From IMG/VR virus record IMGVR_UViG_3300021964_000013: a stretch of DNA of 64,000 nucleotides; one strand, given 5' to 3'. Below the pieces are notes generated by a model. The model was given only the letters and a program-made list of their open reading frames with translations, had not been told where the DNA came from and ran no database searches. This document shows, one piece after another, positions 1-40,873 of the stretch. Within the stretch, counting starts at the first letter, position 1; every line of letters starts with the position of its first letter. The DNA comes from a virus. Made by a program: the position numbers and the translations under genes.

Positions 1-3000
1 ATCACTCGAAAATGAAGACACCTTACAGAATATTAGATTAGGATCTTTAGAGTCATTTACTGCGAGTATTGACAACACATATGCAACGGATAATGACGTA
101 TCAAATCTAAGAGGTGATTTTAATACTTATACATCATCTAATGATGATGCCACCGTGATTCAAAACGATAGGATTAGTTCATTAGAAAGTACAAGTGGAT
201 CACATAACACGAGATTAACTAATCTTGAAACCTTTGAGACCAAAGTCGATAGTGGGTTAGAATTTACAGGATCCAACGTAACAATTAAGGGTGACCTATT
301 AGTTAAAGGGACTGAGACAAGAGTTGATTCAACAACCGTTGAGGTTAGTGATAACATAATCTCTTTAAATGGAAGTGGTGCCGTTAATGGGGGTATTGAA
401 GTAAGAGATACCACGTCACCGGGCGTACTATCGGGTTCTTTATTATGGGACAGTAGTAATAATCATTGGATTGGTGGCACTAAAGGAAATGAGGAGAGAT
501 TATTAACAACGACCGACTTAACTTCATTAGATAATGATATAAGTGATTTAGATGGTCGTTTAGATTCCATAGAAATTAAGACAGGGTCTTTAGACTCAAC
601 TAACACCTCACAAAATAGTAGGTTAGCATCATTAGAATCCTTCACAGGTAGTATTGATGATACATATGCGAGTGATGAGGATGTAACGGACCTTAGAAAC
701 GACTTAAATACCTATACGTCATCTAACGACACATTAAACAACACACAAACCAATAGGTTAAATGCATTAGAAACTACGAGTGGCTCACATGGTAGTAGAA
801 TAGATAGTTTAGAAAACGCGGATTCGGATCAAGATGATAGATTACAATCTCTTGAATCTAAAACAGGGTCTTTAGATAATGATATAAGTGATTTAGATGG
901 TCGTTTAGATTCTGTTGAATCATTTACTGCGAGTATTGATAGTACTTATGCAACTGATAGTGACGTATCAACACTAAGAGGTGATTTTAATACTTACACA
1001 TCATCTAATGACAGTGACATATCATCAATACAAACATTAAACACCACACAAAATAGTAGACTGAATAGTCTTGAATCTAAGACGGGTTCTTTAGATGGTG
1101 ATATATCTACGTTAGATGGTAGAATTGATTCGTTAGAAGTTGAGAGTGGGTCTATTAGAGGTACCTTTAATAGTTACACATCATCTAATAATACATTAAA
1201 CACCACACAAAATAGTAGATTAACATCATTAGAATCTGCAACAGGTTCTTACTTAACCGAACACCCAAACATTACACCAGCACCATCATCTAACAATAGT
1301 GGTCGAACTTATATACAGGATGTTCTTCTCGATTCAAATGGTCACGTGACAGGTTTGACGACAGGGACTGAAACTGTGGTTAACACAGATGAGTATGTAA
1401 CAGGTGCGTCGTGGAATAATAGTACTGCAGTCTTATCATTCACAAGAAATGACGGTGATACATTCAACGTAACATTATTAGACACATTAAGTGATGTTAC
1501 AGTAACGGGAGGTACCTACGACAGTGGGACACAAACATTAGAATTAATCAAAAACGACGGTTCAACGATAAGTGTTAGTGGTTTTGCTATTGATACGGAC
1601 ATTAACTATTACACCACAGGGGCAACCTTTAACAACTCAAATGGAGTTTTAACTTTAGGTATTAAAGGAACCTCCGATGTTACAGTTGATTTAGATGGAA
1701 GATATTTAACGGGTTACACAGAAACTGATCCAATATTCTCAGCATCTCCATCTGCGGGTATAACCAATACAAATATAAGTAATTGGAATACGGCATATGG
1801 TTGGGGAGATCATAGTGTAGAGGGTTACGTAAAGAATGATGAGTATACAACAGGTGCGACTTTCAACTCAGGTAATGGTATTATCACATTTACAAGAAAT
1901 GATGGTGATACGTTTACTGTTGATATTGACGGTAGATATCTAACATCATACAGTGAGACCGACACGTTAGATAGTGTTGCGGATAGAGGTAACACAACAA
2001 ACCAATCATTGAATATTGGTGAGTATATCTCAATGTCTTCGGCACAACCTAAGATTAAACTCATTGAAACCGACACAACAGATAAGAACAAAGAGATATT
2101 AGTTAGTGGTGGTGGATTATACATAAGAAACCTAAATGATGATGGTTCTGTAGGTAGTAATCTTATCAATGTTAGTAATGGAGGTAACTTAAATGTTACG
2201 GGTACTATATCCGCATCGGGTTACAACGACTCAAATTGGAACACCGCATACGGATGGGGTGATCATTCACAAGCGGGTTATCTAACCTCTTACAATAATG
2301 AATACACAACAGGGGCATCATTTAATACATCAACAGGTGTATTAACCTTCACAAGGAATGATGGTGATACGTATGATGTTGATTTAGACAACAGGTATTT
2401 ACAACTTACAGGTGGTAGTCTATCAAGTTTAAACATGAACGGTGACCTTAATATTAGATGGTCAGGTACAGATACTACGAGTTATGAATTGTTCTTCTAC
2501 AACCAAAGTTATCATGCAAAAATCTACTCTACGGGTGGTGATTTAATATTAACCAATGGTACAGGAGAGAAGATGAGAACAACATCTTCAGGTATAAGTG
2601 TAACAGGTTCAGTAACCGCAACAGGTGGTAACTCCACACAATGGAATACCGCATATGGTTGGGGCGATCACAGTGTAGAAGGATATGTAAAGAATGATGA
2701 GTATACAACAGGTGCAACATTTAATAGTGGTAATGGTGTAATTACATTTACAAGAAATGACGGTGACACGTTTAGTGTGGATCTTGATGGAAGGTACTTA
2801 ACTTCATTTAGTGAAACAGATACTTTATCGTCTGTAACCGCAAGAGGTTCCTCAACAAGTACGGCGGTCACATTTAGTGGTGGATTAACCGCAAGTGGTG
2901 GTATTAACGGACTAACGTTATCCAACGGTATTTCAGGTACCAACTTCAATATCACAGGGGTTAATCAATTAGAGATTGCCGATCCGGGTGAGGGTATTGT

Positions 3001-6000
3001 ATTCAAACAAGGATCTTCAGGTGATATAACACTCGCAATCGTAGATGATTCTAATGATAACATTCTAAACTTATCAGGTACGGGGGCTTCGTTCTCTATA
3101 AATGGGGCAACAGTAGCCACACAATCATGGGTTTCTTCGAGAAATTACTTAACCTCACACCCATCAATTGCGGGGTTATCGTCAAACAATAGTGGTAGAA
3201 CATACATCCAAGATATCTTAACAGATTCTAACGGACATGTGACAGGAATTACCACAGCAACCGAAACGGTAGTTAATACTGATGAGTATACAACAGGAGC
3301 AACATTTAATAGTGGTAATGGTGTAATCACATTCACAAGGAATGATGGAGATACCTACACCCTTGATATTAGTGATACTCTATCGGAGATCACAGTAACA
3401 GGTGGTACATATAACAGTGGGTCTCAAACCCTTACCCTTGTCAAATCGGACGGTAATTCAATAGATGTCTCAGGTTTCGCGGTCGATACAGATATTAACT
3501 ACTACACAACAGGAGCAACATTCAATACAGGTAATGGTATCATTACAGGAACCCGTAATGATGGTGGAACTTGGACTGTAGATTTAGATGGTAGATATCT
3601 AACAAGTTATACGGAGACAGATACTTTAGATAGTGTCGCGGATAGAGGGAATTCAACGAATCAATATCTACAGGCGTCGTATTTCCAATCAACGGGGAGT
3701 CAATTACTAAGAAGGTACAGTTCAGGTTGGACATATACCACACATGATATTGTTTATAATGGTTGGACCTCAAGTACAGGTGATTACACCTATTTGAAAT
3801 CTGCAGGAAATAGTAGTGGTGGTCATGGTATTATTGCCGTGGGTGACAACGGTTTTTGGATTGGTAGAACTGATTTAGAAACGGGAGCGTTAACCGATAG
3901 TTCAACTAACCCTATTGGATATACTTTACTTAGATCAGATAGTTCGGGTAATGTTACCATATCAGGGACAATTACGGCATCGGGATACAACAAATCGAAT
4001 TGGGATACAGCGTATGGTTGGGGTAATCATGCAAGTGTGGGGTATCTAACATCTCACCCAACTATTCCGGGTGTTTCGTCTAATAACAGTGGTAGAACAT
4101 ACATACAAGACGTACTTACAGATAGTAACGGTCACGTAACAGGATTAACAACTGCAACAGAAACAGTTGTCAATACCGACACTAACTACTACACAACAGG
4201 GACAACCTTTAATACGGGTAACGGTATAATTACCGGTACAAGAAATGATGGTGGTACTTGGACAGTTGACATCGACGGAAGATACTTAACTTCTTACACT
4301 GAAACTTCAACTCTATCTGATGTTGTTGGTAGAGGTAATTACTTTGGTAATTCGCAATCAGGTTTTGTAACGAATAATACGTGGGGATCTGAATTTAGAA
4401 GAATTAAAAGAGTTACATTCACAAGCGGTGGATCGAATTGGGATAGTGATAATCACGGTATCTTCTCAACGGATGCGAGTGGTAACTATAATGACTCTAT
4501 GTCTGTTAACTCATATAATGATTTAACATTCAGAGTTGATACCAACTCCAACAATAATACGAGTTATGTTAGGTTCATGCAACACTCCACAGGTGCGGGA
4601 ACTGAATGGTTCAGATCAGGATTTGATGGTGGACAATACATTAACTTATTTAGACAGGGTGGTTATGTTGCATTTGAAGGTTTAAATCTCGCAATTTCAA
4701 ACAGTAATGGTACTCATGGTTTCAATAACTACTTTAGAGGTGATAGTACACACTTAGTAATTGGTACGGGAGGTACACTTTATCTAAACTATGGACAATC
4801 CTCAGGAAGTACAAGAATATATGGTAACATTTACTTAAATGATACTATTGTCCTTAACTCGAGTAGGGTTCTTCAAAATGTAACAGGGAATATATCAATG
4901 TTCACCAATGATAGTGGGTATTTAACCACACACCCAACAATAGCGGGGGTATCATCAAACAACAGTGGTAGAACATATATACAAGACATACTCACAGATA
5001 GTAATGGACACGTAACCGGCATCACTACAGGTACTGAAACAGTGGTTAACACTGATACTAACCATTACCTTAATTCGATTAGTTGGAACTCGAGTAATGG
5101 TATTATCACACTTGGTAGACAAGGATTAAATTCATTAACTCTCGATATTGATGGTAGATACGCACAATACGGACACCAAACAACTACAAATTCTGACTTT
5201 AATAATGTAAGGACTTCAGGTATCTATACCTTAGACTATGGTGGACAGTCAAATGCGAACAGTCCTGATGGTGGTGCATGGCACGCATTATGGCACGCAA
5301 GAAGTGGTGGAACAAGACAAGCACAAATCACCATACCATATAATAACGATAATATCTACTTCAGAAGAGCACATAACTCAACCGCAGAAACATGGTATGA
5401 TTGGGTTAAGATATGGCACGAAGGTAATGATGGTGCGGGATCAGGTTTAGACTCTGACACATTAGATGGTCAACAAGGGTCTTACTACTTAGACTACAAT
5501 AACTTCACTAACAAACCGACTATTGGTAATGGTACTATGACGATCTCCGCGGGTGGAGGTATGTCAGGTGGTGGGTCATTTACAGCAAACCAAACAGGTA
5601 GTAGTAGTGTGACAATATCTCACGCAGATACTTCCTCACAAGCGTCCTCTAACAATAGTGGTAGAACATACATACAGGATGTCTTATTAGATGGTTATGG
5701 TCACGTAACAGGATTGACCACCGCAACTGAAACAGTCGTCAACACAGATACTGTAGATTATATAACAAGTGCAACATTCAATACAGGTAACGGTATTATT
5801 ACCGGTTCAGGTGTGGGTAGAGCATCATTCAGTGTTGATATTGATGGTAGATACTTACCATATGGTGGAGGTACTATCACGGGTGATCTACAGGTTAATG
5901 GACACATTAGAGGTGGAGGTCAACAACTCGTCTTAAATGCGGGTGAAACACACTTATATGCCACAGGACAAACAAATGAGTACATTTACTTAAATGCCGA

Positions 6001-9000
6001 ACAAGGTCTTGAGATTAACTCTGAAACAGGTAATTGGTCAGGTGGATGGGCGGCAAGAAAGACAGCATATCTAAGAGGTGACCAATTAACGTTAGATGGT
6101 GAGACACTAACCAAGACTAATATTCAAAACTTTAAGACCGCATACGGTTGGGGTGATCATGCTGTAGAGGGTTACGTAAAGAATGATGAATATGTAACGG
6201 GAGCAACTTGGAATAGTAGTAATGCAGTATTAACCTTCACAAGGAATGATGGAGATACATTCAACGTAACATTATTGAACACGTTGAGTGATGTAACTGT
6301 AACGGGTGGTACCTATAATAGCGGTAACCAAACATTAACACTAACCAAATCAGATGGTAATACTGTATCCGTATCAGGTTTCGCGATTGATACTGATGTC
6401 AATTGGTACACAACAGGGGCAACCTTTAATACAGGTAACGGTATAATTACCGGTAGAAGAAATGATGGTGGTACTTGGACGGTTGATATTGACGGTAGAT
6501 ACTTACCACTTGGTGGTGGAACACTTACAGGTACTATTTCCTTAGGTGAATTAAGAATTGGACAACATACGGTACATAGTGGGTATTGGGGTCTTTGGAA
6601 CTCTGAAGCGTCCACAAGTACAACATCACAATACATGATCATCAGTGCAGGTACTGACACTTATATAAATGGTGATAATGTATTCATTAGAGCGGGTAAT
6701 AATTTATCAACTAACGAACTTAAGGTAACTACAAGTGGTACATATATTGGTGGCAATAAAGTTGCCACAGAGAATTGGGTAATAAGTAACCCTACTCACC
6801 CATCGATAAGTGCGGCAAGTAGTTCTAACAACAGTGGTAGAACATACATACAAGATATATTATTAGATGGTAATGGACACGTAACCGGTATTGCTACAGG
6901 TACTGAAACTGTAACCAATACAGACACAAACTACTACACGACAAGTGCAACGTTCAATACGGGTAATGGTATAATCACAGGAACTCGTAATGATGGTGGT
7001 ACTTGGACAGTTGACATCGACGGAAGATACTTAACTTCTTACACAGAAACGGATACTTTAGCGTCAGTAACGTCAAGAGGGTCATCTACCTCATCTAACA
7101 TTTACTTGAATAACGCATCACCAACACTATACTTACAGGATACTGATAATAGATCTGCGATGATTCATGTTAACAGTAACTACTTCTACATCCTAAATGG
7201 TAGTGCTAATAACAGTACAAGTTGGGCTCAACAAGCAAACAGTAGATGGTTATTCCAAGGTGACTTAAATAATAACAATATTATATTTGGTGGCTCGGGT
7301 GACTTCGCGGGTGTTGTTACCGCATCAGGAGGTAACTCTAACAATTGGAATACCTCATACACTTACTCACAAGTTGGTCACTTACCACTTGCGGGTGGAA
7401 CGATGTCAGGTTCGATAAGTATGGGTAATAATACCATCACTAATGTTGAATCATTAACCTTCAACGATCCGGGACCAACTGAAGGTATTATATGGGCAGG
7501 TGGAAGTGGATTCAAAATTGTAGAATCACCAAACGACCTCTCAACAAATACAGGGGGTAACTTACAGTTTGCTGTTGGATCTACAAGAATATTAACTTTA
7601 GGTTCGAACGGTGAGTCAGAGTTTACTGATAAATTAACTCTAACATCTTCCACTTCAGGATCAACAATATTTGATATTCAAGGTACAAGTGGTCAGTTGT
7701 TCTCAATTACGGATGATTTAACAGGAGACTTGTTCTCAGTATCGGACGCATCAGGTGTACCAATCCTTAATGTAAACGCAAATGGTTCGGTAACACTTGA
7801 CCCGCTTGGTTCTTTATATGTTGGTGACAATAAAGTAATCAACGGTAGTGGTAACATTGTATTTGATGGGCCTGTGACCACAACAAACCAAGGTAGAGGT
7901 ATATATTGGACCGCATACGATAAAGAAGGAACAACAGACGCATCTGATACCGCACATATCCTACACACAACTAATAGTGGTGGATTGTCAGGTTCCGTTA
8001 TTGAGATTAAATCTCATAATGACGCTACGGATGGTGTTAACTTTATTGTAAATGCAACAGACAGTGGTGTTAGAATTAATGGTAGTGCCATTGCGACACA
8101 GACGTGGGTCGGTACAAACACATTAAATCAAACTGAGGGTGACGCGAGATACGCACAACTCACGGCGAGTAACAGTTTCAGTAACTCGTACAATGAATTT
8201 GGTAATAGTACGGGTAGTGTGTCTAACGATGGTAATTGGAATGCAAGGGTTAACGTCGCCGGTAGTTCTCACGCAAGACTTGACGTAAAATCAGTAAGTG
8301 ATGGTATTATCACTTCCATGTTTGCACATACAGGGCATAGTACAGGTAAGATTGGTACATACTCTAACCACTCATTGGAGTTGATGGTTAATGGAACGGG
8401 TGTCGTTACAATTGACTCTTCAGGTAATATATCAACATCAGGTACATTAAGTGCGTCAGGTTATAACAAATCAAATTGGGACGATGCACATGGATGGGGT
8501 GATCACTCAGGATTATACCTACCTATTGGTGGAGGTACAATTACAGGAGATTTAGTTGTTGGTGGTGGAGACTTAACAATTAGTAAGGACGGTAACTACT
8601 CAACAATCACATTCCCCGCACAAACTAATGACGCGGGATTCATTAGACATTATGAATCAAATAACACCGCAAGGATGGAATTCTCGGTGTCTGATGATTC
8701 AGGTACAACCGATCAATTCCACTTCGGTTACAGTGGCGATTTAGATAGATTTATTATTTACTCTAATGGTAGTTTCTTATCACGAGGTTCAGGTACCATT
8801 ACAGGTTCTCTTGGTTTACAAGGTGACTTAGATATGTCCGCAGGTACAACAGCAACACTTGCTGGTATCTCGGGTACAGACCAAACGGTGGAGAATAATT
8901 ATGGAGCATATTTACATTTAGGTGGGTGGGCCGTAGGTAGAACGGATTCAACCGCTGTCTTAGTAAACACGGCGTATAGAGCGGATTACGCAACGAGTCT

Positions 9001-9241
9001 GTTCGATATGAATATCAGTAGATTCACCAATGATTCGGAATATGCGTTAAGAAAATCAACAACTTTCACGAACACCGCAGCAGTATCATTTACTCACGGT
9101 ATTGGACACGATAATGTGATCGTACAAGTTTACGATGGTAATGGAGATCTGTTCTTCCCATCAAGAGTCAATGTTCAGGGTGGAGTTGTTGAAGTTAATT
9201 TTGAGGTAGCAAGATCAGGTAGATTAGTAGTAGTCGGATAA
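1..9241 (+). CDS. Giant modular tail fibre / virion fibre protein (5' end lies upstream of the window)
   Basis: Frame is open from position 2, so the ORF-track start at 155 is internal. N-terminal heptad-like RLxSLESxTGS repeats. Recurring modules SSNNSGRTYIQD..GHVTG..TETVVNT, TGATFN.GNG.ITFTRNDG, and NWNTAYGWGDH. Knob-like segment ending WVKIWHEGNDGAGSGLDSDTLDG, typical of phage fibres. Confidence 0.85.
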   Translation, partial: SLENEDTLQNIRLGSLESFTASIDNTYATDNDVSNLRGDFNTYTSSNDDATVIQNDRISSLESTSGSHNTRLTNLETFETKVDSGLEFTGSNVTIKGDLLVKGTETRVDSTTVEVSDNIISLNGSGAVNGGIEVRDTTSPGVLSGSLLWDSSNNHWIGGTKGNEERLLTTTDLTSLDNDISDLDGRLDSIEIKTGSLDSTNTSQNSRLASLESFTGSIDDTYASDEDVTDLRNDLNTYTSSNDTLNNTQTNRLNALETTSGSHGSRIDSLENADSDQDDRLQSLESKTGSLDNDISDLDGRLDSVESFTASIDSTYATDSDVSTLRGDFNTYTSSNDSDISSIQTLNTTQNSRLNSLESKTGSLDGDISTLDGRIDSLEVESGSIRGTFNSYTSSNNTLNTTQNSRLTSLESATGSYLTEHPNITPAPSSNNSGRTYIQDVLLDSNGHVTGLTTGTETVVNTDEYVTGASWNNSTAVLSFTRNDGDTFNVTLLDTLSDVTVTGGTYDSGTQTLELIKNDGSTISVSGFAIDTDINYYTTGATFNNSNGVLTLGIKGTSDVTVDLDGRYLTGYTETDPIFSASPSAGITNTNISNWNTAYGWGDHSVEGYVKNDEYTTGATFNSGNGIITFTRNDGDTFTVDIDGRYLTSYSETDTLDSVADRGNTTNQSLNIGEYISMSSAQPKIKLIETDTTDKNKEILVSGGGLYIRNLNDDGSVGSNLINVSNGGNLNVTGTISASGYNDSNWNTAYGWGDHSQAGYLTSYNNEYTTGASFNTSTGVLTFTRNDGDTYDVDLDNRYLQLTGGSLSSLNMNGDLNIRWSGTDTTSYELFFYNQSYHAKIYSTGGDLILTNGTGEKMRTTSSGISVTGSVTATGGNSTQWNTAYGWGDHSVEGYVKNDEYTTGATFNSGNGVITFTRNDGDTFSVDLDGRYLTSFSETDTLSSVTARGSSTSTAVTFSGGLTASGGINGLTLSNGISGTNFNITGVNQLEIADPGEGIVFKQGSSGDITLAIVDDSNDNILNLSGTGASFSINGATVATQSWVSSRNYLTSHPSIAGLSSNNSGRTYIQDILTDSNGHVTGITTATETVVNTDEYTTGATFNSGNGVITFTRNDGDTYTLDISDTLSEITVTGGTYNSGSQTLTLVKSDGNSIDVSGFAVDTDINYYTTGATFNTGNGIITGTRNDGGTWTVDLDGRYLTSYTETDTLDSVADRGNSTNQYLQASYFQSTGSQLLRRYSSGWTYTTHDIVYNGWTSSTGDYTYLKSAGNSSGGHGIIAVGDNGFWIGRTDLETGALTDSSTNPIGYTLLRSDSSGNVTISGTITASGYNKSNWDTAYGWGNHASVGYLTSHPTIPGVSSNNSGRTYIQDVLTDSNGHVTGLTTATETVVNTDTNYYTTGTTFNTGNGIITGTRNDGGTWTVDIDGRYLTSYTETSTLSDVVGRGNYFGNSQSGFVTNNTWGSEFRRIKRVTFTSGGSNWDSDNHGIFSTDASGNYNDSMSVNSYNDLTFRVDTNSNNNTSYVRFMQHSTGAGTEWFRSGFDGGQYINLFRQGGYVAFEGLNLAISNSNGTHGFNNYFRGDSTHLVIGTGGTLYLNYGQSSGSTRIYGNIYLNDTIVLNSSRVLQNVTGNISMFTNDSGYLTTHPTIAGVSSNNSGRTYIQDILTDSNGHVTGITTGTETVVNTDTNHYLNSISWNSSNGIITLGRQGLNSLTLDIDGRYAQYGHQTTTNSDFNNVRTSGIYTLDYGGQSNANSPDGGAWHALWHARSGGTRQAQITIPYNNDNIYFRRAHNSTAETWYDWVKIWHEGNDGAGSGLDSDTLDGQQGSYYLDYNNFTNKPTIGNGTMTISAGGGMSGGGSFTANQTGSSSVTISHADTSSQASSNNSGRTYIQDVLLDGYGHVTGLTTATETVVNTDTVDYITSATFNTGNGIITGSGVGRASFSVDIDGRYLPYGGGTITGDLQVNGHIRGGGQQLVLNAGETHLYATGQTNEYIYLNAEQGLEINSETGNWSGGWAARKTAYLRGDQLTLDGETLTKTNIQNFKTAYGWGDHAVEGYVKNDEYVTGATWNSSNAVLTFTRNDGDTFNVTLLNTLSDVTVTGGTYNSGNQTLTLTKSDGNTVSVSGFAIDTDVNWYTTGATFNTGNGIITGRRNDGGTWTVDIDGRYLPLGGGTLTGTISLGELRIGQHTVHSGYWGLWNSEASTSTTSQYMIISAGTDTYINGDNVFIRAGNNLSTNELKVTTSGTYIGGNKVATENWVISNPTHPSISAASSSNNSGRTYIQDILLDGNGHVTGIATGTETVTNTDTNYYTTSATFNTGNGIITGTRNDGGTWTVDIDGRYLTSYTETDTLASVTSRGSSTSSNIYLNNASPTLYLQDTDNRSAMIHVNSNYFYILNGSANNSTSWAQQANSRWLFQGDLNNNNIIFGGSGDFAGVVTASGGNSNNWNTSYTYSQVGHLPLAGGTMSGSISMGNNTITNVESLTFNDPGPTEGIIWAGGSGFKIVESPNDLSTNTGGNLQFAVGSTRILTLGSNGESEFTDKLTLTSSTSGSTIFDIQGTSGQLFSITDDLTGDLFSVSDASGVPILNVNANGSVTLDPLGSLYVGDNKVINGSGNIVFDGPVTTTNQGRGIYWTAYDKEGTTDASDTAHILHTTNSGGLSGSVIEIKSHNDATDGVNFIVNATDSGVRINGSAIATQTWVGTNTLNQTEGDARYAQLTASNSFSNSYNEFGNSTGSVSNDGNWNARVNVAGSSHARLDVKSVSDGIITSMFAHTGHSTGKIGTYSNHSLELMVNGTGVVTIDSSGNISTSGTLSASGYNKSNWDDAHGWGDHSGLYLPIGGGTITGDLVVGGGDLTISKDGNYSTITFPAQTNDAGFIRHYESNNTARMEFSVSDDSGTTDQFHFGYSGDLDRFIIYSNGSFLSRGSGTITGSLGLQGDLDMSAGTTATLAGISGTDQTVENNYGAYLHLGGWAVGRTDSTAVLVNTAYRADYATSLFDMNISRFTNDSEYALRKSTTFTNTAAVSFTHGIGHDNVIVQVYDGNGDLFFPSRVNVQGGVVEVNFEVARSGRLVVVG
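527..912 (+). repeat. 41-bp exact direct repeat inside the fibre gene (527-567 and 872-912)
   Basis: TTAGATAATGATATAAGTGATTTAGATGGTCGTTTAGATTC occurs twice. Confidence 0.9.
4244..7044 (+). repeat. 56-bp exact direct repeat inside the fibre gene (4244-4299 and 6989-7044)
   Basis: AATGATGGTGGTACTTGGACAGTTGACATCGACGGAAGATACTTAACTTCTTACAC occurs twice. Confidence 0.9.
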
Positions 9242-9252
9242 AAGGGAAATGT

Positions 9253-10398
9253 ATGTTAAGAGAAAATGTTATAGTAAGTGGTTCGTTAGATGTACAAAGC
9301 GGGCAGTTCATAATACCAAGAGGACCGAGGGCGAATAGACCTTCGAGTCCTGAGGTTGGTTCTTTATATCTTGAAGAGTCACCAAGTGGTAGTTTTGTTG
9401 TAACATACACAGGATCATCTAATGATGATGGTGGATGGGAACCCGTAGGTTCACAGAACACGGATAGAACCGCATTCAAGTATAGAAACATCATCAACTA
9501 CTCATACTTAGCGGGTGGATATAAATCTTCATCTCCATGGAAGAATGTCCATAGGGCAACACACGCAACCGATCAAACGGTTCACATTGGTGAACTTATG
9601 GATTATCCCGCATCGTACACATCCGGTGCGTGTAGTAAATCCATATTATTTATATGGTCATCTAATAGTGATGGTGCATGGAAATCAGCAACACAAGTAC
9701 ACGGAACACATACAACAGGTATTCATATGGTTAATGAAACAGCATATGCTCACCAAACGAAATGGGATTTACTGAATGCAAGAGATGATCCGGGTACTTT
9801 ATTTAAGGAGACGGAATTTGCATACATATTTGGTGGATCAGTGGCGGCAGTTGAAAAGTTTAACTTAACTAACGAGTCTATGTATACTACTTACTACCCA
9901 AGTGGAACGGGACCTTATACAACCACAACAACATCTATTACGAGTACCCTTGGTGCTTCGGGATTTTCGGATGAGAATTATGGTTATGGATATGGTTCTG
10001 AGAGTGGTAATAAATGTCATTTTGCCACCGATACTTTCGAAACGAGAGCGTCATCATGGGCATCAAGTGGTCAACAGAAAGGGATTAGTTCTAAAGTAGG
10101 TAAAGGGTACTGTGGTAATGAAGGTACCTACCAAGGAGGATACAACCTTAGAAGATGGGATGCGTTTACTGAAACGAATATTGGTAACGTACCTAAACCA
10201 AGACCTAATTGTGGGGAAGAGAACTTCTCCATGGGACAAGACTTCCAATACATGTTAGCATGTTATGGGGATAGTCAACAAAATAACGATAGTTGGAAAT
10301 TTACATATTCAACCGACACGGGAGTTTTAAATCCCGCGGGGTTAGCACCGGGTGTTAATGCGGGTGCGTCCTCAGGTCATTGTGGTTGGAGAAATTAA
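9253..10398 (+). CDS. Tail-associated kelch/beta-propeller-like repeat protein, paralog 1 of 3
   Basis: N-terminal PxG..A.RP.SP..GSLYLE fibre-attachment-like motif; repeated Y.AGG / Y.FGG units; ends SSGHCGWRN; directly follows the fibre gene. Confidence 0.6.
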   Translation: MLRENVIVSGSLDVQSGQFIIPRGPRANRPSSPEVGSLYLEESPSGSFVVTYTGSSNDDGGWEPVGSQNTDRTAFKYRNIINYSYLAGGYKSSSPWKNVHRATHATDQTVHIGELMDYPASYTSGACSKSILFIWSSNSDGAWKSATQVHGTHTTGIHMVNETAYAHQTKWDLLNARDDPGTLFKETEFAYIFGGSVAAVEKFNLTNESMYTTYYPSGTGPYTTTTTSITSTLGASGFSDENYGYGYGSESGNKCHFATDTFETRASSWASSGQQKGISSKVGKGYCGNEGTYQGGYNLRRWDAFTETNIGNVPKPRPNCGEENFSMGQDFQYMLACYGDSQQNNDSWKFTYSTDTGVLNPAGLAPGVNAGASSGHCGWRN

Positions 10399-10410
10399 GT
10401 ATTTATAGAT

Positions 10411-11523
10411 ATGTTATTCGAAAATTTAGAAATAAGTGGATCATTAAGAGGAGAAGGTAACGACTTTAAAATGCCGAAAGGTGCGAAAGGAGATCGACCA
10501 TCATCACCTGAAACAGGATCACTCTATTTAGAGGAAGCCACATCAGGTAGTTTCCTTATGGTATATACAGGTATTTCTAATAATGATAGTGGTTGGGAAA
10601 GAGTTTCACACCAATCGAATTTCGGGAAGACAGCATTTAAATATAGACATGTGATTGCCTATTCATACTTAGCGGGTGGATATAAATCTTCATCTCCATG
10701 GAAGAACGCACACAAGACCGTTAATGCCACAGATCAAACTTCACACATTGGTGAATTATTAGATTATCCCGCATCTTATACTTCAGGAGCATGTAGTCGA
10801 TTTACTTTTTTTGTGTGGTCAGTAAACAGTGATGGTGCTTGGAAGAGTGCATCTAACATCCATGGAACATATACATCAGCAATCAATATGTTTAACGACA
10901 CTAATCTTGCTCATGATGCGAAGTTCGATACCAATATTGCAAGAAGTGATTTAGGTACGATGTTTAAGGAACAAGAATACGCCTACCTATTTAGTGGTGG
11001 ATCCGCAACGGTAGAGATATTTGATTTAACTAATGAAAGTTTGATGACACTATATACGTTATCAACTATAAACGGTAGTGATGGGGGGAGTGCGTTCTCA
11101 GACGAACATTATGGTTATGGATGGACCTCGAGTTCGGGGGTTAAACTAAACTTTGCAACAGAAACATTTGCAACATCACCTCATTGGTCAGCCCATTCAC
11201 AACAAAAGGGTATCTCATCAAAATTAGGTAAAGGTTATGCGGGAAATGAAGGTTCATATGCAGGAGGATATAACCTAAGAAGATGGAGTAATCAAACAGA
11301 TACTAACCTTGGTAATGTGGCTAAACCCGATGGTAACTGTGGTGAAGAAAACTTTACTATGGGTCAGGATTGGCAATATATGTTAGGTAATTATAATGGT
11401 GCACAAAATAATAATAGTTGGAAATTCACATATGCAACCGATACGGGTGTACTAAACCCTTCAGGTTTATCACCGGGAGTTAACGCTGGTACATCATCAG
11501 GTCATTGTGGTTGGAGAGATTAA
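10411..11523 (+). CDS. Tail-associated kelch/beta-propeller-like repeat protein, paralog 2 of 3
   Basis: Colinear with paralog 1; ends SSGHCGWRD. Confidence 0.6.
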   Translation: MLFENLEISGSLRGEGNDFKMPKGAKGDRPSSPETGSLYLEEATSGSFLMVYTGISNNDSGWERVSHQSNFGKTAFKYRHVIAYSYLAGGYKSSSPWKNAHKTVNATDQTSHIGELLDYPASYTSGACSRFTFFVWSVNSDGAWKSASNIHGTYTSAINMFNDTNLAHDAKFDTNIARSDLGTMFKEQEYAYLFSGGSATVEIFDLTNESLMTLYTLSTINGSDGGSAFSDEHYGYGWTSSSGVKLNFATETFATSPHWSAHSQQKGISSKLGKGYAGNEGSYAGGYNLRRWSNQTDTNLGNVAKPDGNCGEENFTMGQDWQYMLGNYNGAQNNNSWKFTYATDTGVLNPSGLSPGVNAGTSSGHCGWRD

Positions 11524-11533
11524 AATTTAAGAT

Positions 11534-12649
11534 ATGATATACGAAAACATGTCCGTTAGTGGATCGTTAAAGGTGGATAAGGTCACTGCAAGACCTCCGA
11601 AAGGTTCTGCCGCAAATAGACCCACGAATCCACTCTCAGGATCTATGTATTTAGAGACATCTGATGTGCATACGAGTTATTTGATGATATATACGGGTGT
11701 AAGTAATATCGACGGAGGATGGGAAAGAGTTGCGGCACAACAAAATATGGCGACAGGTTTTAAATTTAGACAAATCATCAACTACTCTTACATAGCCGGT
11801 GGATATAAGAGTTCGTCACCATGGAAGAATGTTCATAAATCAACTAACTCCACAGATCAAACATACCACATTGGTGAGTTATTAGATTACCCGGCGAACT
11901 ATACCTCAGGGGCGTGTAATCTTAGAATATTTTTTATGTGGTCGGTGAATACAGATGGTGCCCACAAAGGACCAACGTCCATACATAGTACCACCACATC
12001 GGCGGTTAATATGTTCACAGATACCAATTACGCACACCAATCACAACATGATATACAATATACAAGATCGGATTGTGGTACTGTTCATAAAGAACATGAT
12101 TTTGCATGGATCTTTGGTGGTAATAGAACTGAGGTGGATAAGTTTAACTTAAGTAGTGAAACGAGGATTTTAAATTATGGTGTAACATCAATTAGTAGTG
12201 GTGGGGGTGTAAGTGCATTCTCAGACGAGAATAATGGTTATATACATTCTGATGGTGGTAATAGAAAAATGAATTTTACCACAGAAACCATTAGTACCTC
12301 CTCTACTGCATGGGCGGCACACGGACAACAAAAAGGTATTTCATCTAAAGTATCAAAAGGTTATGCGGGTAATGAAGGTTCATACAATGGCGGTTATAAC
12401 CTAAGAAGGTGGGATTTAACTACCGACACCAATGTGGGTAATATTGCTAAGATCCAAGGAAACACAGGTGAAGAGAACTTCACTATGGGACAAGATCATC
12501 AGTATATGTTAGGTAACTATAATGGTGTTCAGAATAATGACACTTGGAAATTATTTTATTATACTGACACGGGTATTTTTAACCCAACAGGTTTACAACC
12601 CGCGGTTAATGGTGGAACATCTTCAGGACACTGTGGGTGGAGGGAATAA
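11534..12649 (+). CDS. Tail-associated kelch/beta-propeller-like repeat protein, paralog 3 of 3
   Basis: Colinear with paralogs 1 and 2; ends SSGHCGWRE. Confidence 0.6.
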   Translation: MIYENMSVSGSLKVDKVTARPPKGSAANRPTNPLSGSMYLETSDVHTSYLMIYTGVSNIDGGWERVAAQQNMATGFKFRQIINYSYIAGGYKSSSPWKNVHKSTNSTDQTYHIGELLDYPANYTSGACNLRIFFMWSVNTDGAHKGPTSIHSTTTSAVNMFTDTNYAHQSQHDIQYTRSDCGTVHKEHDFAWIFGGNRTEVDKFNLSSETRILNYGVTSISSGGGVSAFSDENNGYIHSDGGNRKMNFTTETISTSSTAWAAHGQQKGISSKVSKGYAGNEGSYNGGYNLRRWDLTTDTNVGNIAKIQGNTGEENFTMGQDHQYMLGNYNGVQNNDTWKLFYYTDTGIFNPTGLQPAVNGGTSSGHCGWRE

Positions 12650-35509: not shown

Positions 35510-36000
35510 TGGGAACAAACTATTACAGAATCCCGTCCGCGGACGAGGTAAAGAAGAAAAGAGACATCTTAGTTGTTCAGGTTGAAACTATGGAGTTAAA
35601 CCCGAGTGACGTTGAAGGTGGGTTTAGATTTATCAGTCCCAATAAAGATTGGGAGTGGTTCAGTCCGTGGGATATGTTCATGAAAGATATGAACGTCCAC
35701 TTAGGTAAACGGAGTATGGGGTGGAAGTTCTGTTGGAATTTTCATGATAACAAGTACTACTCAAATAAAGAAGAACTTATTGAGTTCATCAAGTCAGGTA
35801 GAGTTGTTGATGAATATGGGGAGGAAATGTTAGTTGATGAATTCTTAGAGATGTCGTTTAATTGGGGAGAACCCGATGGATTGGTTGTGGATGAGGAATA
35901 TTACAAGAATAACGAAAGGTTATCATACTTTAATGATCCTAAATATTACGATAGAATAATTGATGGACTAAGAGTCTCATCATCAACCGAATTTACTTGA
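35509..36000 (+). CDS. Hypothetical phage protein
   Basis: MGTNYY ... HLGKRSMGWKF ... DEYG. Confidence 0.65.
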   Translation: MGTNYYRIPSADEVKKKRDILVVQVETMELNPSDVEGGFRFISPNKDWEWFSPWDMFMKDMNVHLGKRSMGWKFCWNFHDNKYYSNKEELIEFIKSGRVVDEYGEEMLVDEFLEMSFNWGEPDGLVVDEEYYKNNERLSYFNDPKYYDRIIDGLRVSSSTEFT

Positions 36001-36002
36001 TT

Positions 36003-36665
36003 ATGATAACACTATTTGAAAATTACGATCAAATGTCGGAGTACACCGCATCTTTAGTTGCGGAGGAAGTAACGAACAACCCTAACCTACGTTTAGGTTT
36101 ACCCACAGGATCAACACCGATTGGGATGTATAAAAATCTTATACAATTTGGTTTAGATTGGTCTAATGTAGAAACATATAACTTGGATGAGTATGAAGGG
36201 ATTAGTCATAGTCACCCCGAATCATATCACATGTACATGAATAAGAACCTATTCTTACATGTGAACTTAAAGAAGGAGAATATCCACTTTCCTGATGATC
36301 AATATGATAAAACCATATCGGGGTTTGGAGGATTGGACTTAACAATATTGGGTATAGGTCACAATGGTCACATTGCATTTAATGAACCCGGTTCTTCAGT
36401 AACCTCGAGAACAAGAAAAGTCAAACTCACTGAAGAGACAATAAATACCAACAGTAGGTTCTTTGATTCAATTAATGAAGTACCTAAGAAAGCATTCACT
36501 ATGGGAATGAAAACCATCAGAGAATCAAAGAAGATCATTTTAATTGCCAATGGTCAAGATAAGTGGGATATACTCAATGAATGTTTTAACGGTGAACTAA
36601 ATAAGGACAGACCTGCGAGTATATTACAGACACACCCAAACATCCAAGTATTCTATGCCGGTTAA
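36003..36665 (+). CDS. nagB: Glucosamine-6-phosphate deaminase
   Basis: LGLPTGSTP, YNLDEY, LGIGHNGHIAFNEPG, TMGMKTI, PASILQ.H. Confidence 0.93.
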   Translation: MITLFENYDQMSEYTASLVAEEVTNNPNLRLGLPTGSTPIGMYKNLIQFGLDWSNVETYNLDEYEGISHSHPESYHMYMNKNLFLHVNLKKENIHFPDDQYDKTISGFGGLDLTILGIGHNGHIAFNEPGSSVTSRTRKVKLTEETINTNSRFFDSINEVPKKAFTMGMKTIRESKKIILIANGQDKWDILNECFNGELNKDRPASILQTHPNIQVFYAG

Positions 36666-37170
36666 TAAATTAATGGTTGTTGCACACCCCGACGATGAAA
36701 CCTTATTCGGTGGGGGTGAACTACTAAAACACCAAGGAGAGTACAAGGTGGTTTGTTTAGATTACGGTAATCATTTGGTTAGACACAAAGAATTTATTTG
36801 TGCAATGGAAGAATTGGGAGTAACTAAATGGGAACATTGGGATGGTGAACCCTACAAATCCTCAACCGCATATAATGAGTCTATCTTAATACCAAGAATA
36901 GAAAGAGTCTTAAACGAGAAGAATTGGGAAAGGGTTGTCACACACAATCAAGGTGGTGAGTACGGACACTATAGACATATTGGAACCCACAATGTTATGA
37001 GTCGTTTATGTCCCGATAAGTTATGGGTTTTTGATACGTGTTCAGACAAACCCCTTGGTGAAGAGATAAAACGTATGAAGGGTCACGTTCTTAAAACATG
37101 TTACCCATCACAAGAACAGGTCTTAAGGTGGTTTAATTGGGGTTGTGAGAGGATAAAGAAATACAACTAA
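36655..37170 (+). CDS. PIG-L / LmbE-family deacetylase
   Basis: VAHPDDE, THNQGGEYGH..H, YPSQ. Confidence 0.85.
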   Translation: MPVNKLMVVAHPDDETLFGGGELLKHQGEYKVVCLDYGNHLVRHKEFICAMEELGVTKWEHWDGEPYKSSTAYNESILIPRIERVLNEKNWERVVTHNQGGEYGHYRHIGTHNVMSRLCPDKLWVFDTCSDKPLGEEIKRMKGHVLKTCYPSQEQVLRWFNWGCERIKKYN

Positions 37171-37195: not shown

Positions 37196-37471
37196 ATGGG
37201 TATAGATTTTTTAAAAATCATTGAAGCATTTAAGATCAAAATAAGTCCAAGTGAGAGTCAGAAAGAACTCGCACAGAAGAGATTGGATATTTGTTCTACG
37301 TGTGAATTTAGAAGAGGCGACATAGACTCCAATTTAACTTCATGTGGGAAATGTGGGTGTTTCATATATGGTAAAATATTTACTAATGAGTATGATGCGT
37401 GCCCCGAGGGTAAATGGTCAGAAATAGATAAACCCTATTTTAAAATTAAAGAAACAAAAACATTAATATGA
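37196..37471 (+). CDS. Small Cys-rich (metal-binding) protein, DUF6171-like
   Basis: RLDICSTCEF ... CGKCGC ... CPEGKW; ends KETKTLI. Confidence 0.7.
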   Translation: MGIDFLKIIEAFKIKISPSESQKELAQKRLDICSTCEFRRGDIDSNLTSCGKCGCFIYGKIFTNEYDACPEGKWSEIDKPYFKIKETKTLI

Positions 37472-39072
37472 AGGCAGTCTTATTAGGTAACGACTTTATA
37501 AAGGACACTGACGGTACCTTTAAAATGTTAGAGACAAATACAAATCTTGCATTACCATTAAAACCAATTGCAAGTTATATAAATAAGGATGTATTAGATC
37601 AGTTCTTATTAGATAACGATATAACTGACATCGATCTAATTATACCTTCGGTAGGTATTGCCTCTTCCATTGACTATGATAACTCAGAATTATCTCATTC
37701 CACATTCCACTCCTACATAATTCAAAATTATGGTGAAACTTACAATGTTAGGACATGGACAACGAAGGGTGATAACATACCAACCGTGGAAGACGGACCG
37801 AACAAACTAATAATTAGAATTTCTTATGATACTAATGCGTTAGTTGACGATACATACTGTAGAGATAATTTTAATTTTCTAAAGTTAATGTACGATTCGA
37901 ATTCCAATTCCATACCCTCAACCTATTTTAATGATGGAGGTGATTTAACAATTGATGGTATTGGTACCTCTTTTAGGGATAACGGTAATTACCCTAACCT
38001 AATAATAAAAAAGAGATATCCAACAACAGACTACTTAGAATATCCCAAAGTTTTAAAAGTCACCACACCACAAGAACTTATCGATATAAAAAATTCATTA
38101 TCCTCCGATGAATTACTACAAGAATATATTGTAAATACCAATGATTTGTTGGAAGGTAAAACAAAAACATATAGACATTTATCTTTAGTTTATGGTTCTG
38201 ATTTATCTGTCTTAGATTTGTTTGAACCTTATGTTCATACAAACAAAGTTGCTCTTTCAGAAACTATTGATTATGTGGGTAATGAAATCCAAGTTTGGGA
38301 AAGACCTAAACTATTGCAGAAAATAGGAAATTATGAATACAATAATAGTTTACACGGCGATTCAAATGACACGGTAATATTAAGTGATGGTACGACCACC
38401 ACTTTAGGATCTCTTAGTGTTGGTGATGAAGTGAAGTCTTTGGATATATACAGTCTTCCCGATGAGGAAATGTCCTATAATAGTTGGAGTGGTGTAGAAA
38501 GTGACGTATTTAATAACACTATACCTACAACTTCTTCTGTAATTGGCAAGATTTCAAAACCATTAGGTTTATTCGTAAATGTTTTAGGTTTTGATAATGG
38601 TTTAACTATTTCGAATGTAAAAAAGACGATCATCCTTACAAAAACATCAGAAGGAAATATAAAGTTTACAACATTTGGTAGACTAAATGTGGGATCCCAA
38701 GTCGTTTTCGGGAGTCTGAGTGATGACTCTTTATCCACCGCAACCGTGACCTCAATTAACTATGAATTTAAATATTTGGTCGCTAACAGTGTTGACGTTG
38801 AGGATAAAGATGTCTATTTAGTTTTAGATGATCAGACTAACCCCATGTATTATACAATACACCATAATGCTAAGGGGATTCCATCAGAGAATTGTGCGTG
38901 TTGGATGAAAGAAAATGAATGGGATGATTGTATATGTGAACAACCCTGTATTTTTGACCCGGGGGAATGTGAATTTAGTCCATTTTTTATCGATTGTTGC
39001 CAAAGTGCTCCGAATTGTAATGGGATGTATACTAATTCCTTCGCAGCGAATCCTTGTGGTGAAGCAAAATAA
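37468..39072 (+). CDS. Circularly permuted ATP-grasp-like domain + Hint-like domain + C-terminal 10-Cys peptide fusion
   Basis: N-terminal GNDF..D.DG.FKMLETNTN, LIIKKRYP, LLQEYI, YRH (ATP-grasp motifs in permuted order); TVILSDG....LGSLSVGDEV and terminal IHHN (Hint blocks); 67-aa Cys-rich tail from 38869. Confidence 0.65.
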   Translation: MKAVLLGNDFIKDTDGTFKMLETNTNLALPLKPIASYINKDVLDQFLLDNDITDIDLIIPSVGIASSIDYDNSELSHSTFHSYIIQNYGETYNVRTWTTKGDNIPTVEDGPNKLIIRISYDTNALVDDTYCRDNFNFLKLMYDSNSNSIPSTYFNDGGDLTIDGIGTSFRDNGNYPNLIIKKRYPTTDYLEYPKVLKVTTPQELIDIKNSLSSDELLQEYIVNTNDLLEGKTKTYRHLSLVYGSDLSVLDLFEPYVHTNKVALSETIDYVGNEIQVWERPKLLQKIGNYEYNNSLHGDSNDTVILSDGTTTTLGSLSVGDEVKSLDIYSLPDEEMSYNSWSGVESDVFNNTIPTTSSVIGKISKPLGLFVNVLGFDNGLTISNVKKTIILTKTSEGNIKFTTFGRLNVGSQVVFGSLSDDSLSTATVTSINYEFKYLVANSVDVEDKDVYLVLDDQTNPMYYTIHHNAKGIPSENCACWMKENEWDDCICEQPCIFDPGECEFSPFFIDCCQSAPNCNGMYTNSFAANPCGEAK

Positions 39073-39092: not shown

Positions 39093-39239
39093 ATGTCAAA
39101 CAATAATCAAAATACAACTTATAATACTTTAAGAGAAATAACATCTCTTGTTAGTAAGGTGACTGATACAAATGACACCTCATCAATTAAAAGTTTGAGT
39201 AGTCAATTTGCACAAAACATAATCAACAAACACTCATAA
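39093..39239 (+). CDS. Small Ser/Thr/Asn-rich peptide (48 aa; not in ORF track)
   Basis: MSNNNQNTTYNTLREITSLVSKVTDTNDTSSIKSLSSQFAQNIINKHS; fills the gap and abuts the next start. Confidence 0.55.
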   Translation: MSNNNQNTTYNTLREITSLVSKVTDTNDTSSIKSLSSQFAQNIINKHS

Positions 39240-39240
39240 A

Positions 39241-39867
39241 GTGAGATTATGTATCTTAACACAACCGAGGACTTCATCTACGAATTTATCTTTTCTTCTC
39301 GGTCGTTTGTCAGGATATGAAGTTTACAATGAACCATTTCATGGTCATCACGGTATTAAAAAATACCTAACAGAGCCCTTTACAAAAGATGATAACATCA
39401 TTCTAAAGGAAATGCCATTCTTCCACCAACCATTCGGTGTGGAGGGTAGTGACCAATTCTTTGAATGGTCTCAACAGAACTTCGACAAGGTAATATATCT
39501 TCTACGTAGAGATACTCAAAAACAGAGTGAAAGTTTCTGTTATAGATTAATCCTCTCCAATGAAGACCCAAATACCAAATGGCACGACCAAAAGGAGTAC
39601 GATATGAGTATCGTTCCCCTAAAAAAAATCCAATACGAGAAGGAACGTATGGACCAAAGGAATGAAATGTTCATAAATAACTCATCCATTCATTCCAACC
39701 CTTTATTCTACTATGAAGACCTAATCATTAATGAAGGTAATAACGAGAATATGATAAAATTAATTAATTACGTTGGTTTATCATTCGACAAGAACATCGT
39801 TAGAACCTACTACGGCATCAATAAAAAGTGTAGAGTAAACAGGAAAAAAACAAACACTTTGATTTAA
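39241..39867 (+). CDS. Sulfotransferase-like protein (Stf0 / P-loop type)
   Basis: QPRTSST (PAPS 5'-phosphosulfate-binding-like), NEPF, YLLRRD...QSES, YYEDL; ends KKTNTLI. Confidence 0.7.
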   Translation: MRLCILTQPRTSSTNLSFLLGRLSGYEVYNEPFHGHHGIKKYLTEPFTKDDNIILKEMPFFHQPFGVEGSDQFFEWSQQNFDKVIYLLRRDTQKQSESFCYRLILSNEDPNTKWHDQKEYDMSIVPLKKIQYEKERMDQRNEMFINNSSIHSNPLFYYEDLIINEGNNENMIKLINYVGLSFDKNIVRTYYGINKKCRVNRKKTNTLI

Positions 39868-40157: not shown

Positions 40158-40356
40158 TTCTTACGAGAAGGCAATGAAAGTCATTGATAGTTGTGAGAAC
40201 GACATTCAAATGAAAGGTGCGATAACTTATTGTCACCTATTTAAGGATCAATTCATTAGATTAGGGGGTGATGAAACACTCATTAATGTATACCACAGTA
40301 ACTTAATAAAACATATTAACTATAAGATAAATGAGAGTTATAGGTACGTCAATTAA
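40141..40356 (+). CDS. Hypothetical protein
   Basis: ORF packed between neighbours. Confidence 0.5.
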   Translation: MMDLYNSYEKAMKVIDSCENDIQMKGAITYCHLFKDQFIRLGGDETLINVYHSNLIKHINYKINESYRYVN

Positions 40357-40873
40357 AGATTGTTACGTCCTTCAGTGGGACAAGTTTAATGACCGGAGAG
40401 GTTACTTCCAAGTACCCTTTAACCAAGATATTTTTAATGAAGTTACGGATTTGGATTTCAATATAGTCCAAGAGAATGAATCGTACTCCAAAAAGAATGT
40501 TATAAGAGGATTACATTTCCAAAAACCACCTTACGAACAAGCCAAATTAGTTAGATGTACTTACGGTGAGGTAACCGATGTTATCGTAGATATAAGAAAA
40601 GAGTCTCCAACCTATGGTAGAGTAGTCACTGTTAAATTGAATGGTGGGGATTGTAAATCAGTATTTGTACCTCGGGGTTGTGCACACGGATTCTCAACCC
40701 AAACAAAGGCAATATTCAATTATAAGGTCGATAACGTTTATAATAAAGAGAGTGAAGGAGGTATTATCTATAATGACCCTAATCTAAACATCGATTGGGG
40801 TGTAAATAAGAAACCTAAAATATCAGAAAAGGATTTGGAACTACCCTTTTTCAAAGACTTAGATATTTATTAA
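40331..40873 (+). CDS. rfbC: dTDP-4-dehydrorhamnose 3,5-epimerase
   Basis: DRRGYF, QENESYS, RGLHFQ, AKLVRC, DIRKESPTYG, AHGF, YKVDN, SEKD. Confidence 0.93.
   Translation: MRVIGTSIKDCYVLQWDKFNDRRGYFQVPFNQDIFNEVTDLDFNIVQENESYSKKNVIRGLHFQKPPYEQAKLVRCTYGEVTDVIVDIRKESPTYGRVVTVKLNGGDCKSVFVPRGCAHGFSTQTKAIFNYKVDNVYNKESEGGIIYNDPNLNIDWGVNKKPKISEKDLELPFFKDLDIY

Follow-up and report, generated by a model that had tools for sequence, protein, structure and literature searches.

A candidate self-processing fusion of a permuted ATP-grasp ligase, a Hint domain and a cysteine-rich peptide in uncultured phages

A stretch of 64,000 nucleotides from the IMG/VR virus record IMGVR_UViG_3300021964_000013 (hereafter the window) carries, on the plus strand at 37468..39072, an open reading frame (ORF) for a protein of 534 amino acids (aa) plus stop that combines three parts within one chain. 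These are a circularly permuted ATP-grasp ligase (aa 1-290, 37468..38337), a Hint domain (aa 296-467, 38353..38868) and a cysteine-rich tail of 67 aa (38869..39069), which is predicted to be released as a mini-protein of about 7 kDa. On the same strand, the fusion gene is preceded by a gene for a 91-aa protein with six cysteines (Cys91, 37196..37471) and followed by one for a 48-aa microprotein (micro47, 39093..39239), predicted to be a small subunit of the ligase. The start site of the fusion is supported both by a 4-base ATGA overlap of its start codon with the stop of the upstream 91-aa gene and by Met1, which is invariant in an alignment of 150 N-domain sequences. An AlphaFold2 model of the whole fusion, built from a 149-sequence alignment, reached a predicted local distance difference test (pLDDT) of 91.1 and a predicted template modelling score (pTM) of 0.87, and a model of the ligase only (aa 1-294) a pLDDT of 93.2. 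The three-part organization had been put forward in a sequence-only reading of this DNA, and the motifs quoted there are all present (MKAVLLGNDF..LETNTN at aa 1-26, LIIKKRYP at 178-185, LLQEYI at 216-221 and YRH at 235-237).

As a single query against Pfam, PHROGs and PDB sequences, the fusion retrieved nothing usable. Relatives were collected nonetheless from three sources: 82 among 90%-identity clusters, 246 among 50%-identity representatives and 150 confirmed matches in IMG/VR viral contigs, the latter scanned with an alignment of 14 closer sequences. The residue and tail counts given below refer to 207 aligned members, and the tails called simple are those of 20-100 residues (n=138). For locus counts, ORFs were called in 86 loci and searched with profiles, and these loci form 40 non-redundant groups at 80% identity. 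Given the 246 representatives, the 150 IMG/VR matches, the retention of the D9/E22/N24 triad in 204 of the 207 aligned members and of a His-Asn pair at the end of the Hint domain in 193, the fusion ORF and its family are not due to chance.

The metal motif of ATP-grasp enzymes, of the D...E-x-N type, normally lies near the C-terminal end of the fold. The window protein has such a Mg/phosphate-type motif, D9...E22-x-N24-T25, at 37492..37542, and D9, E22 and N24 are invariant in the N-domain alignment. Searching with the ligase-only model in Foldseek, the top 31 matches were all circularly permuted ATP-grasp enzymes (E 2e-5 to 2e-3), among them yeast and human glutathione synthetase, YjfC/YgiC, GspS, the CP_ATPgrasp structure 3k1t and 3n6x (E 1.6e-3). 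In structural comparison with VIA, the best score was obtained for 7uka (Z 8.7, 206 aligned residues, root-mean-square deviation (rmsd) 4.4), followed by scores of 8.3 for 5oeu, 8.2 for 3k1t and 8.1 for 2io7; the Z values are moderate, although the fold list is almost purely ATP-grasp. The permuted enzymes align with the ligase from residue 1, whereas for classical ATP-grasps (LysX/ArgX, RimK, Ddl, TTLL, PurK) the alignment begins only at about residue 50, and the domain is thus taken to be circularly permuted. Both the permuted order and the class expected for aa 1-290 (CP_ATPgrasp or glutathionylspermidine-synthase-like) had been anticipated from the letters alone.

Conservation extends beyond the metal motif. 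P176-N177..K181 (within LIIKKRYP), Q218-E219-Y220 and R236, located between 37993 and 38175, are at least 90% conserved in alignments of 149-150 sequences, and by analogy with known ATP-grasps these three motifs, of the nucleotide/phosphate type, would be ATP contacts. The same level of at least 90% holds for T25, K181, R236, D109, R117, D121, D127 and Y130. Residues 9-35 of the family profile align, below significance (E 0.26-0.75), with the E-x-N metal motif that pyruvate and biotin carboxylase have, and a PDB sequence search with the single fusion protein gave zero ligase matches. Taking fold and residues together, the N-terminal domain is best modelled as an active ATP-grasp of the amide-ligase type, from the glutathione-synthetase/GspS/YgiC clade. 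Within this clade, YgiC and YjfC are peptide-spermidine ligases (cited in PMC12568646), and enzymes of the glutathione synthetase/GspS/YgiC type activate the C-terminal carboxylate of a peptide and join it to an amine (PMC12568646).

The second part of the chain has a Hint fold by profile, Foldseek and VIA. The family profile run against PDB sequences matches intein and Hedgehog sequences (KlbA intein, E=6.5e-8), Foldseek finds the Hedgehog autoprocessing domain 1at0 (E=1e-7) together with dozens of inteins and bacterial intein-like (BIL) domains, and VIA gives a Z of 17.1 to 1at0 (141 aligned residues, rmsd 2.0), 16.4 to the NpuDnaB intein 4o1r and 15.9 to the C. thermocellum BIL domain 2lwy. 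The structural alignments span model residues 293/296 to 467/468, in agreement with the boundaries first proposed (38347-38868, aa 294-467). The expectation of a Hint/PT-HINT match for this segment was borne out as regards the fold; at the level of sequence models, neither PF07591 nor PF14890 of Pfam matches the Hint of the window protein.

The catalytic residues of the domain are unevenly retained. Residue 1 of inteins corresponds to structural position 296, which is His in the window protein and in the family is H (62), G (25), K (19), T, N or S (15 each), and never Cys. The block-B TxxH is absent, with zero conserved His in the block-B region of the family alignment. At the other end, H466-N467 (38863..38868) forms the predicted Asn-cyclisation cleavage site, and the residue following it (+1) is variable in the 138 simple tails: A 31, P 24, K 15 and I 11, with Cys in one and Ser in three. 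Since there is no nucleophile at position 296, no TxxH block and no fixed +1 residue, cleavage is predicted to be C-terminal only, and by its sequence the Hint has kept just what Asn cyclisation at its C-terminal end requires; the earlier preference for C-terminal cleavage over splicing, drawn from the Ala after His-Asn and the missing N-terminal Cys, is thus upheld across the family. Loss of His-Asn is seen mostly in members that have next to no tail (Fisher p=1e-5, uncorrected for phylogeny). As a separate observation, in several relatives (P0007-P0010, P0013 and similar, of about 676 aa, and L007-L015) the Hint holds an insert of about 145 residues matching PF02018 (CBM_4_9), placed after the position of window-protein residue 365, which suggests that the ligase-Hint body binds glycan.

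The tail that follows N467 is, as first described, a 67-aa segment with 10 Cys and 11 Asp/Glu; it also has 3 Lys and ends in GEAK. Its 10-Cys framework is retained down to about 40% identity, and the number of cysteines is even in 138/138 simple tails (4, 6, 8, 10 or 12). The even count points to disulfide pairing rather than to 4-Cys metal sites, and on this basis the tail would be a disulfide mini-protein. A second constant feature is lysine: at least one is present in every simple tail and exactly one in 74 of the 138, and it lies among the last four residues in 110. Considering all 207 members, 166 have a Lys among the last four residues, versus a background Lys frequency of 5.3%. Between these fixed positions the tail changes quickly. 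In comparison with the 89%-identical relative L006, the nonsynonymous divergence (dN) is 0.385 for the tail, 0.099 for the Hint and 0.062 for the ligase, so that the tail evolves at about 6 times the ligase rate. The 98%-identical P0002 differs at nine amino acids, seven of them in the tail (Fisher p 1.1e-5) and none at a Cys, with a tail ratio of nonsynonymous to synonymous divergence (dN/dS) of about 1.9, based on few sites. A hypervariable segment behind conserved upstream domains, one of the checks proposed at the outset, is thus what the family displays. When the tail alone was searched in the Atlas, no named match was usable (all structural template modelling (TM) scores <0.5), and no recognisable toxin family was found in the Pfam and Atlas searches.

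Both small neighbours of the fusion gene recur with it. A Cys91 homologue (phrog_13558, DUF6171-like; PHROG match E=3e-10) adjoins the fusion on the same strand in practically all loci and in 38 of the 40 non-redundant locus groups. Its invariant residues are R29, C33, C36, C50, C53, C55, K60, C69 and W74, and its Atlas neighbours are all viral. On the other side, a micro47 homologue of about 47 aa lies directly 3' of the fusion in 64/86 loci, with a single invariant residue, His47, in a C-terminus of the form K-x-K-H-[LSM]. A three-chain complex was predicted with micro47 as the scored partner and Cys91 as an unscored passenger chain, and micro47 obtained an interaction prediction score from aligned errors (ipSAE) of 0.82 versus 0.00 for the best of three controls. 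This mark was attained by 58 of 80 solved complexes and by 2 of 110 mismatched pairs. Across runs, contact agreement was at least 95% and the partner pLDDT at least 87. The model supports binding of micro47 to the ligase, with predicted contacts at residues 6, 8, 10, 12, 18, 20, 23, 235, 237, 239, 241 and others. Because these alternate with D9, E22, N24 and R236, micro47 is predicted to cover the back of the catalytic sheet. Micro47 was also considered as a substrate of the ligase and rejected, its predicted position being the back of the sheet and not the active site.

Regarding its distribution, the fusion gave zero tblastn matches in 50,697 deposited phage genomes, and a scan of 185,579 species genomes showed it in just two contigs of metagenome-assembled genomes (MAGs), labelled Flavobacteriaceae (L086, CBFHJJ010000001.1, 248 kb) and Pelagibacterales (L087). 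Both are probably mis-binned phage DNA, and L086 is probably the genome of a jumbo phage that entered the bin together with its host or in error. Given the absence from deposited phage genomes and the presence in just these two MAG contigs, the family is a property of uncultured, mostly large, aquatic phages.

Across the family, the cargo behind the first Hint varies in length, type and sequence. A comparison of three loci is informative, as the same six-Cys core (CWC..C..C..C..C) is found in three contexts: in L063 its end is free (..PPKL), in L066 it precedes ..FK|SD.. and an intramolecular chaperone resembling Peptidase_S74, and in L077 a second, canonical Hint starting with CFIGE comes after it. 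Since one core occurs in all three settings, we take the mature product to be an excised peptide, and its Lys-bearing C-terminal end is apparently the only sequence feature common to all forms. Longer relatives have two or three extra Hints in tandem which do match PF07591 and PF14890. In P0182, P0194, P0208, P0211, P0214 and P0217, for instance, two to three canonical Hints (Cys1...His-Asn) come after the first one, with spacers of only 1-5 residues and a K or KL terminus; P0182, with three Hint domains, has a Cys-rich peptide between the second and the third. After the last extra Hint, the chain ends in K, KK, KL or KKF in 24 of 27 cases, and the tail-less members have a Lys-containing end stub in 11/11.

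The folds, the conserved residues, the lost N-terminal chemistry of the Hint, the three-gene module, the even-cysteine rule, the terminal Lys and the fast tail are all observed in silico. The reading we favour, and to which we would give about an even chance of being right, is that of a self-processing phage polyprotein, set in a three-gene module, whose ligase acts on its own tail. The catalytically intact permuted ATP-grasp would be an amide ligase from a clade that phosphorylates the C-terminal carboxylate of a short peptide and couples an amine to it, and micro47, packed on the back face of the catalytic sheet, would stabilise it. The Hint, having no N-terminal cleavage or splicing machinery, would make a single Asn-cyclisation cut after N467, and the freed 67-residue tail would fold to a five-disulfide mini-protein in an oxidising environment. 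Before or at release, the ligase may act in cis on the Lys-bearing C-terminal end of the tail by amidation, conjugation or joining to some other amine; conceivable outcomes are closure of the tail head to tail, amidation with a polyamine or attachment to a protein of the virion or host. Enzyme and Hint would together serve as the covalently attached "leader" of a hypervariable peptide that meets host or environment, and relatives would reach the same end state via the S74 chaperone or BIL-type extra Hints.

The steps of this scheme differ in strength. That one Asn-cyclisation cut after N467 frees the mini-protein can be inferred with fair confidence. Action of the ligase on the C-terminal end of the tail is suggested weakly, by analogy, because the nearest relatives activate a peptide C-terminal carboxylate and because the Lys end is kept in every architecture. 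The complete maturation route with the enzyme as leader, where a micro47-completed ATP-grasp activates or conjugates the Lys end of its own tail and a cleavage-only Hint releases it, is tentative, and we regard it as possible rather than probable.

Several points weigh against the scheme. The ATP-grasp matches of the ligase are moderate (Z 8-9, TM 0.4-0.47), and up to an E of 10 the protein matched no Pfam family, the ATP-grasp models (CP_ATPgrasp, GSP_synth, GSH_synth_ATP) included. At the block-F His position of the Hint, 159 of 207 members have Asp and 29 have His, and Pro, which disfavours intein C-terminal cleavage when found at +1, is the +1 residue in 24 of the 138 tails. Disulfides cannot form in a reducing cytoplasm. 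The ligase is intact also in relatives with extra Hints or very short tails, so the Cys-rich part is not necessarily its substrate, which could be external to the protein. Lastly, cleavage, ATP use and modification are predictions from sequences and models.

The main rival, less likely in our view, takes up the intact ligase of these relatives and proposes a plain self-cleaving polyprotein that delivers its parts 1:1, in which the ligase acts on a polyamine or other small molecule, or on a host or virion protein, and the tail is an independent effector or binding module. It would explain why the ligase persists where the tail is 5-10 residues long or replaced by tandem Hints; the conserved acidic D109, D121 and D127 would suit a basic amine substrate (e.g., a polyamine), and the nearest structures are small-molecule or peptide-polyamine ligases. 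However, the fusion is obligatory in more than 200 representatives, and the terminal Lys is kept in tail-less forms and after extra Hints, which would be puzzling if the C-terminus did not matter to the enzyme.

It is also conceivable, though unlikely, that no cleavage takes place, the Hint being a degenerate structural spacer and the tail an attached C-terminal binding domain of a virion-associated or envelope-acting enzyme. The loss of the N-terminal catalytic apparatus of the Hint and the frequency of Pro at +1 would fit such a spacer, the high pTM suggests a rigid two-domain body, and a carbohydrate-binding module (PF02018) sits inside the Hint of some relatives. Yet His-Asn is near-invariant and lost mainly together with the tail, and in relatives a second self-cleaving domain (S74 or another Hint) closes off the core peptide on its other side.

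A microviridin-like, graspetide-type maturation, in which the ATP-grasp forms side-chain ester or amide macrocycles (Thr/Ser/Lys to Asp/Glu) in its own tail, is very improbable: the 11 Asp/Glu and 3 Lys of the window tail would allow it and ATP-grasps of ribosomally made peptides with post-translational modifications (RiPPs) do appear in the fold lists, but only low (7mgv Z 4.7, 5ig9 Z 4.0), the fold is that of the permuted glutathione-synthetase/GspS clade and not the MdnB/C clade, and a conserved cross-link is unlikely because 24/138 tails (and 21/44 short ones) contain neither Asp nor Glu, with no conserved side-chain carboxylate. On the whole, the sequence-only reading stands in its three structural claims, while a linkage of the graspetide type, to which it had pointed, is unlikely as the conserved chemistry. 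It had noted neither the two conserved small partners nor the conserved Lys at the end of the tail.

Further genes of the neighbourhood were inspected in the window and in relatives. A 208-aa ORF at 39241..39867 (plus strand) clusters with fusion neighbours in 16 of 40 locus groups and has no Pfam, PHROG or PDB sequence match; a "sulfotransferase" label for it was rejected as having no support from these three sources. Sugar-modifying genes flank the module at 35997-37170 and 40331-40873, with matches to Glucosamine_iso/NagB-like (E 1e-19), PIG-L deacetylase (E 3e-13) and dTDP-4-dehydrorhamnose 3,5-epimerase (RmlC, E 6e-61); in the distant relative L004, the flanks are instead a UDP-glucose dehydrogenase, a carbamoyltransferase and an acetyltransferase. 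Arrays of 2-oxoglutarate (2OG)-Fe(II) oxygenases are found near the fusion in 30 of 40 locus groups of relatives. They consist of small PF13640 paralogues, sometimes with a radical S-adenosylmethionine (SAM) gene, within a few kb (e.g., L001, 3811-12812). No homologue of these relatives' oxygenase arrays, of their 267-aa and 427-aa proteins or of their radical SAM enzyme is present anywhere in the window. The phage character of the window is seen in three phrog_1417 paralogues after a 3,079-aa ORF, in glycosyltransferases and in radical SAM enzymes. The 3,079-aa frame (2-12649) runs off the window start and is followed by the three paralogues of about 370 aa (phrog_1417, E 1e-43 to 1e-50), an arrangement that looks like a giant fibre with alternative tip proteins. 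In L004, a gene of more than 3,359 aa lies only 700 bases downstream of the fusion gene. A promoter and terminator scan of 36.5-40.5 kb returned fewer sites than in shuffled sequence.

Each domain type of the fusion is already known, as is the Hint-mediated release of a variable C-terminal cargo in PT-HINT and BIL proteins. In pretoxin-HINT (PF07591) and A-type BIL domains, as here, a Hint with a C-terminal His-Asn and no obligatory +1 nucleophile precedes a variable C-terminal cargo thought to be released. Unlike those, the phage Hint has no N-terminal Cys/Ser, no TxxH block and no Pfam match. Its upstream partner is an enzyme and not a secretion or trafficking domain, and its cargo is a small disulfide peptide and not a toxin enzyme. 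Polymorphic toxin systems combine an N-terminal secretion or trafficking domain with a C-terminal toxin and a neighbouring immunity gene; the phage protein has an enzyme at its N-terminus and a tail of no recognisable toxin family, and micro47 is predicted to bind the ligase and not the tail. Splicing inteins require Cys/Ser/Thr at residue 1 and a TxxH block B for the N-terminal acyl shift, and Cys/Ser/Thr at +1; the phage family has no Cys at residue 1 and rarely Cys or Ser at +1.

With eukaryotic glutathione synthetase, GspS, E. coli YgiC/YjfC, 3k1t and 3n6x, the ligase shares the permuted topology and the acidic/Asn metal motif. At about 290 aa, however, it is roughly two thirds of their size, its sequence identity to them is 5-16%, and it is joined to a Hint and would, by prediction, require a separately encoded 48-aa subunit. 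The Hint-Cys peptide-Hint order of some relatives (P0075, P0119, L077) resembles the ciliate BUBL loci (BIL-ubiquitin-like-BIL), where two Hint-type domains bracket a small domain, freeing its N-terminus and activating its C-terminus, and the best matches of the phage Hint include the BIL2 structures 6tmm and 6y75. BUBL conjugates through a thioester; the window protein differs in having the upstream Hint only, a Cys-rich instead of a ubiquitin-like cargo, and an ATP-grasp. A further parallel is the Peptidase_S74 chaperone of phage tail fibres and endosialidases. In relatives P0061-P0065, P0139, L019-L044 and L066, ..K|SD.. and an S74-like domain come after a Cys-rich segment (in P0139 the Pfam match is below threshold, E 0.0065), and S74-type cleavage at this point would produce the Lys end that is also found in the tail of the window protein, which itself has no S74 domain. 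Microviridin-type graspetides likewise pair an ATP-grasp ligase with a short ribosomal peptide that is released by proteolysis. They differ from the phage case, where enzyme and peptide form one chain, the Hint replaces the leader peptidase, no side-chain carboxylate is conserved and the ATP-grasp belongs to another clade.

The sequence-only reading knew of no described phage system with this architecture, and our literature search found no paper describing the ligase-Hint-Cys peptide layout. In a review of jumbo phages (PMC7824862), ATP-grasps come up only as R2K peptide ligases and RNA ligases, and not as a ligase-Hint fusion. What is new is the combination of a permuted ATP-grasp, a cleavage-only Hint that no sequence model matches, a hypervariable disulfide peptide and two dedicated small partners. 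If the reading is correct, large aquatic phages would have a widespread and compact route to small disulfide-rich peptides, with no need for a separate leader, a leader peptidase or a secretion system. It would also reveal a natural Hint dedicated to clean release at its C-terminus, a minimal ATP-grasp ligase whose microprotein subunit is detachable, and a library of natural Cys-knotted scaffolds, all three of practical interest to protein engineering. The tail peptides evolve like toxins or receptor-binding loops, and the biological question is what the phage does with them, which, if the reading is correct, would be directly testable with one expression construct.

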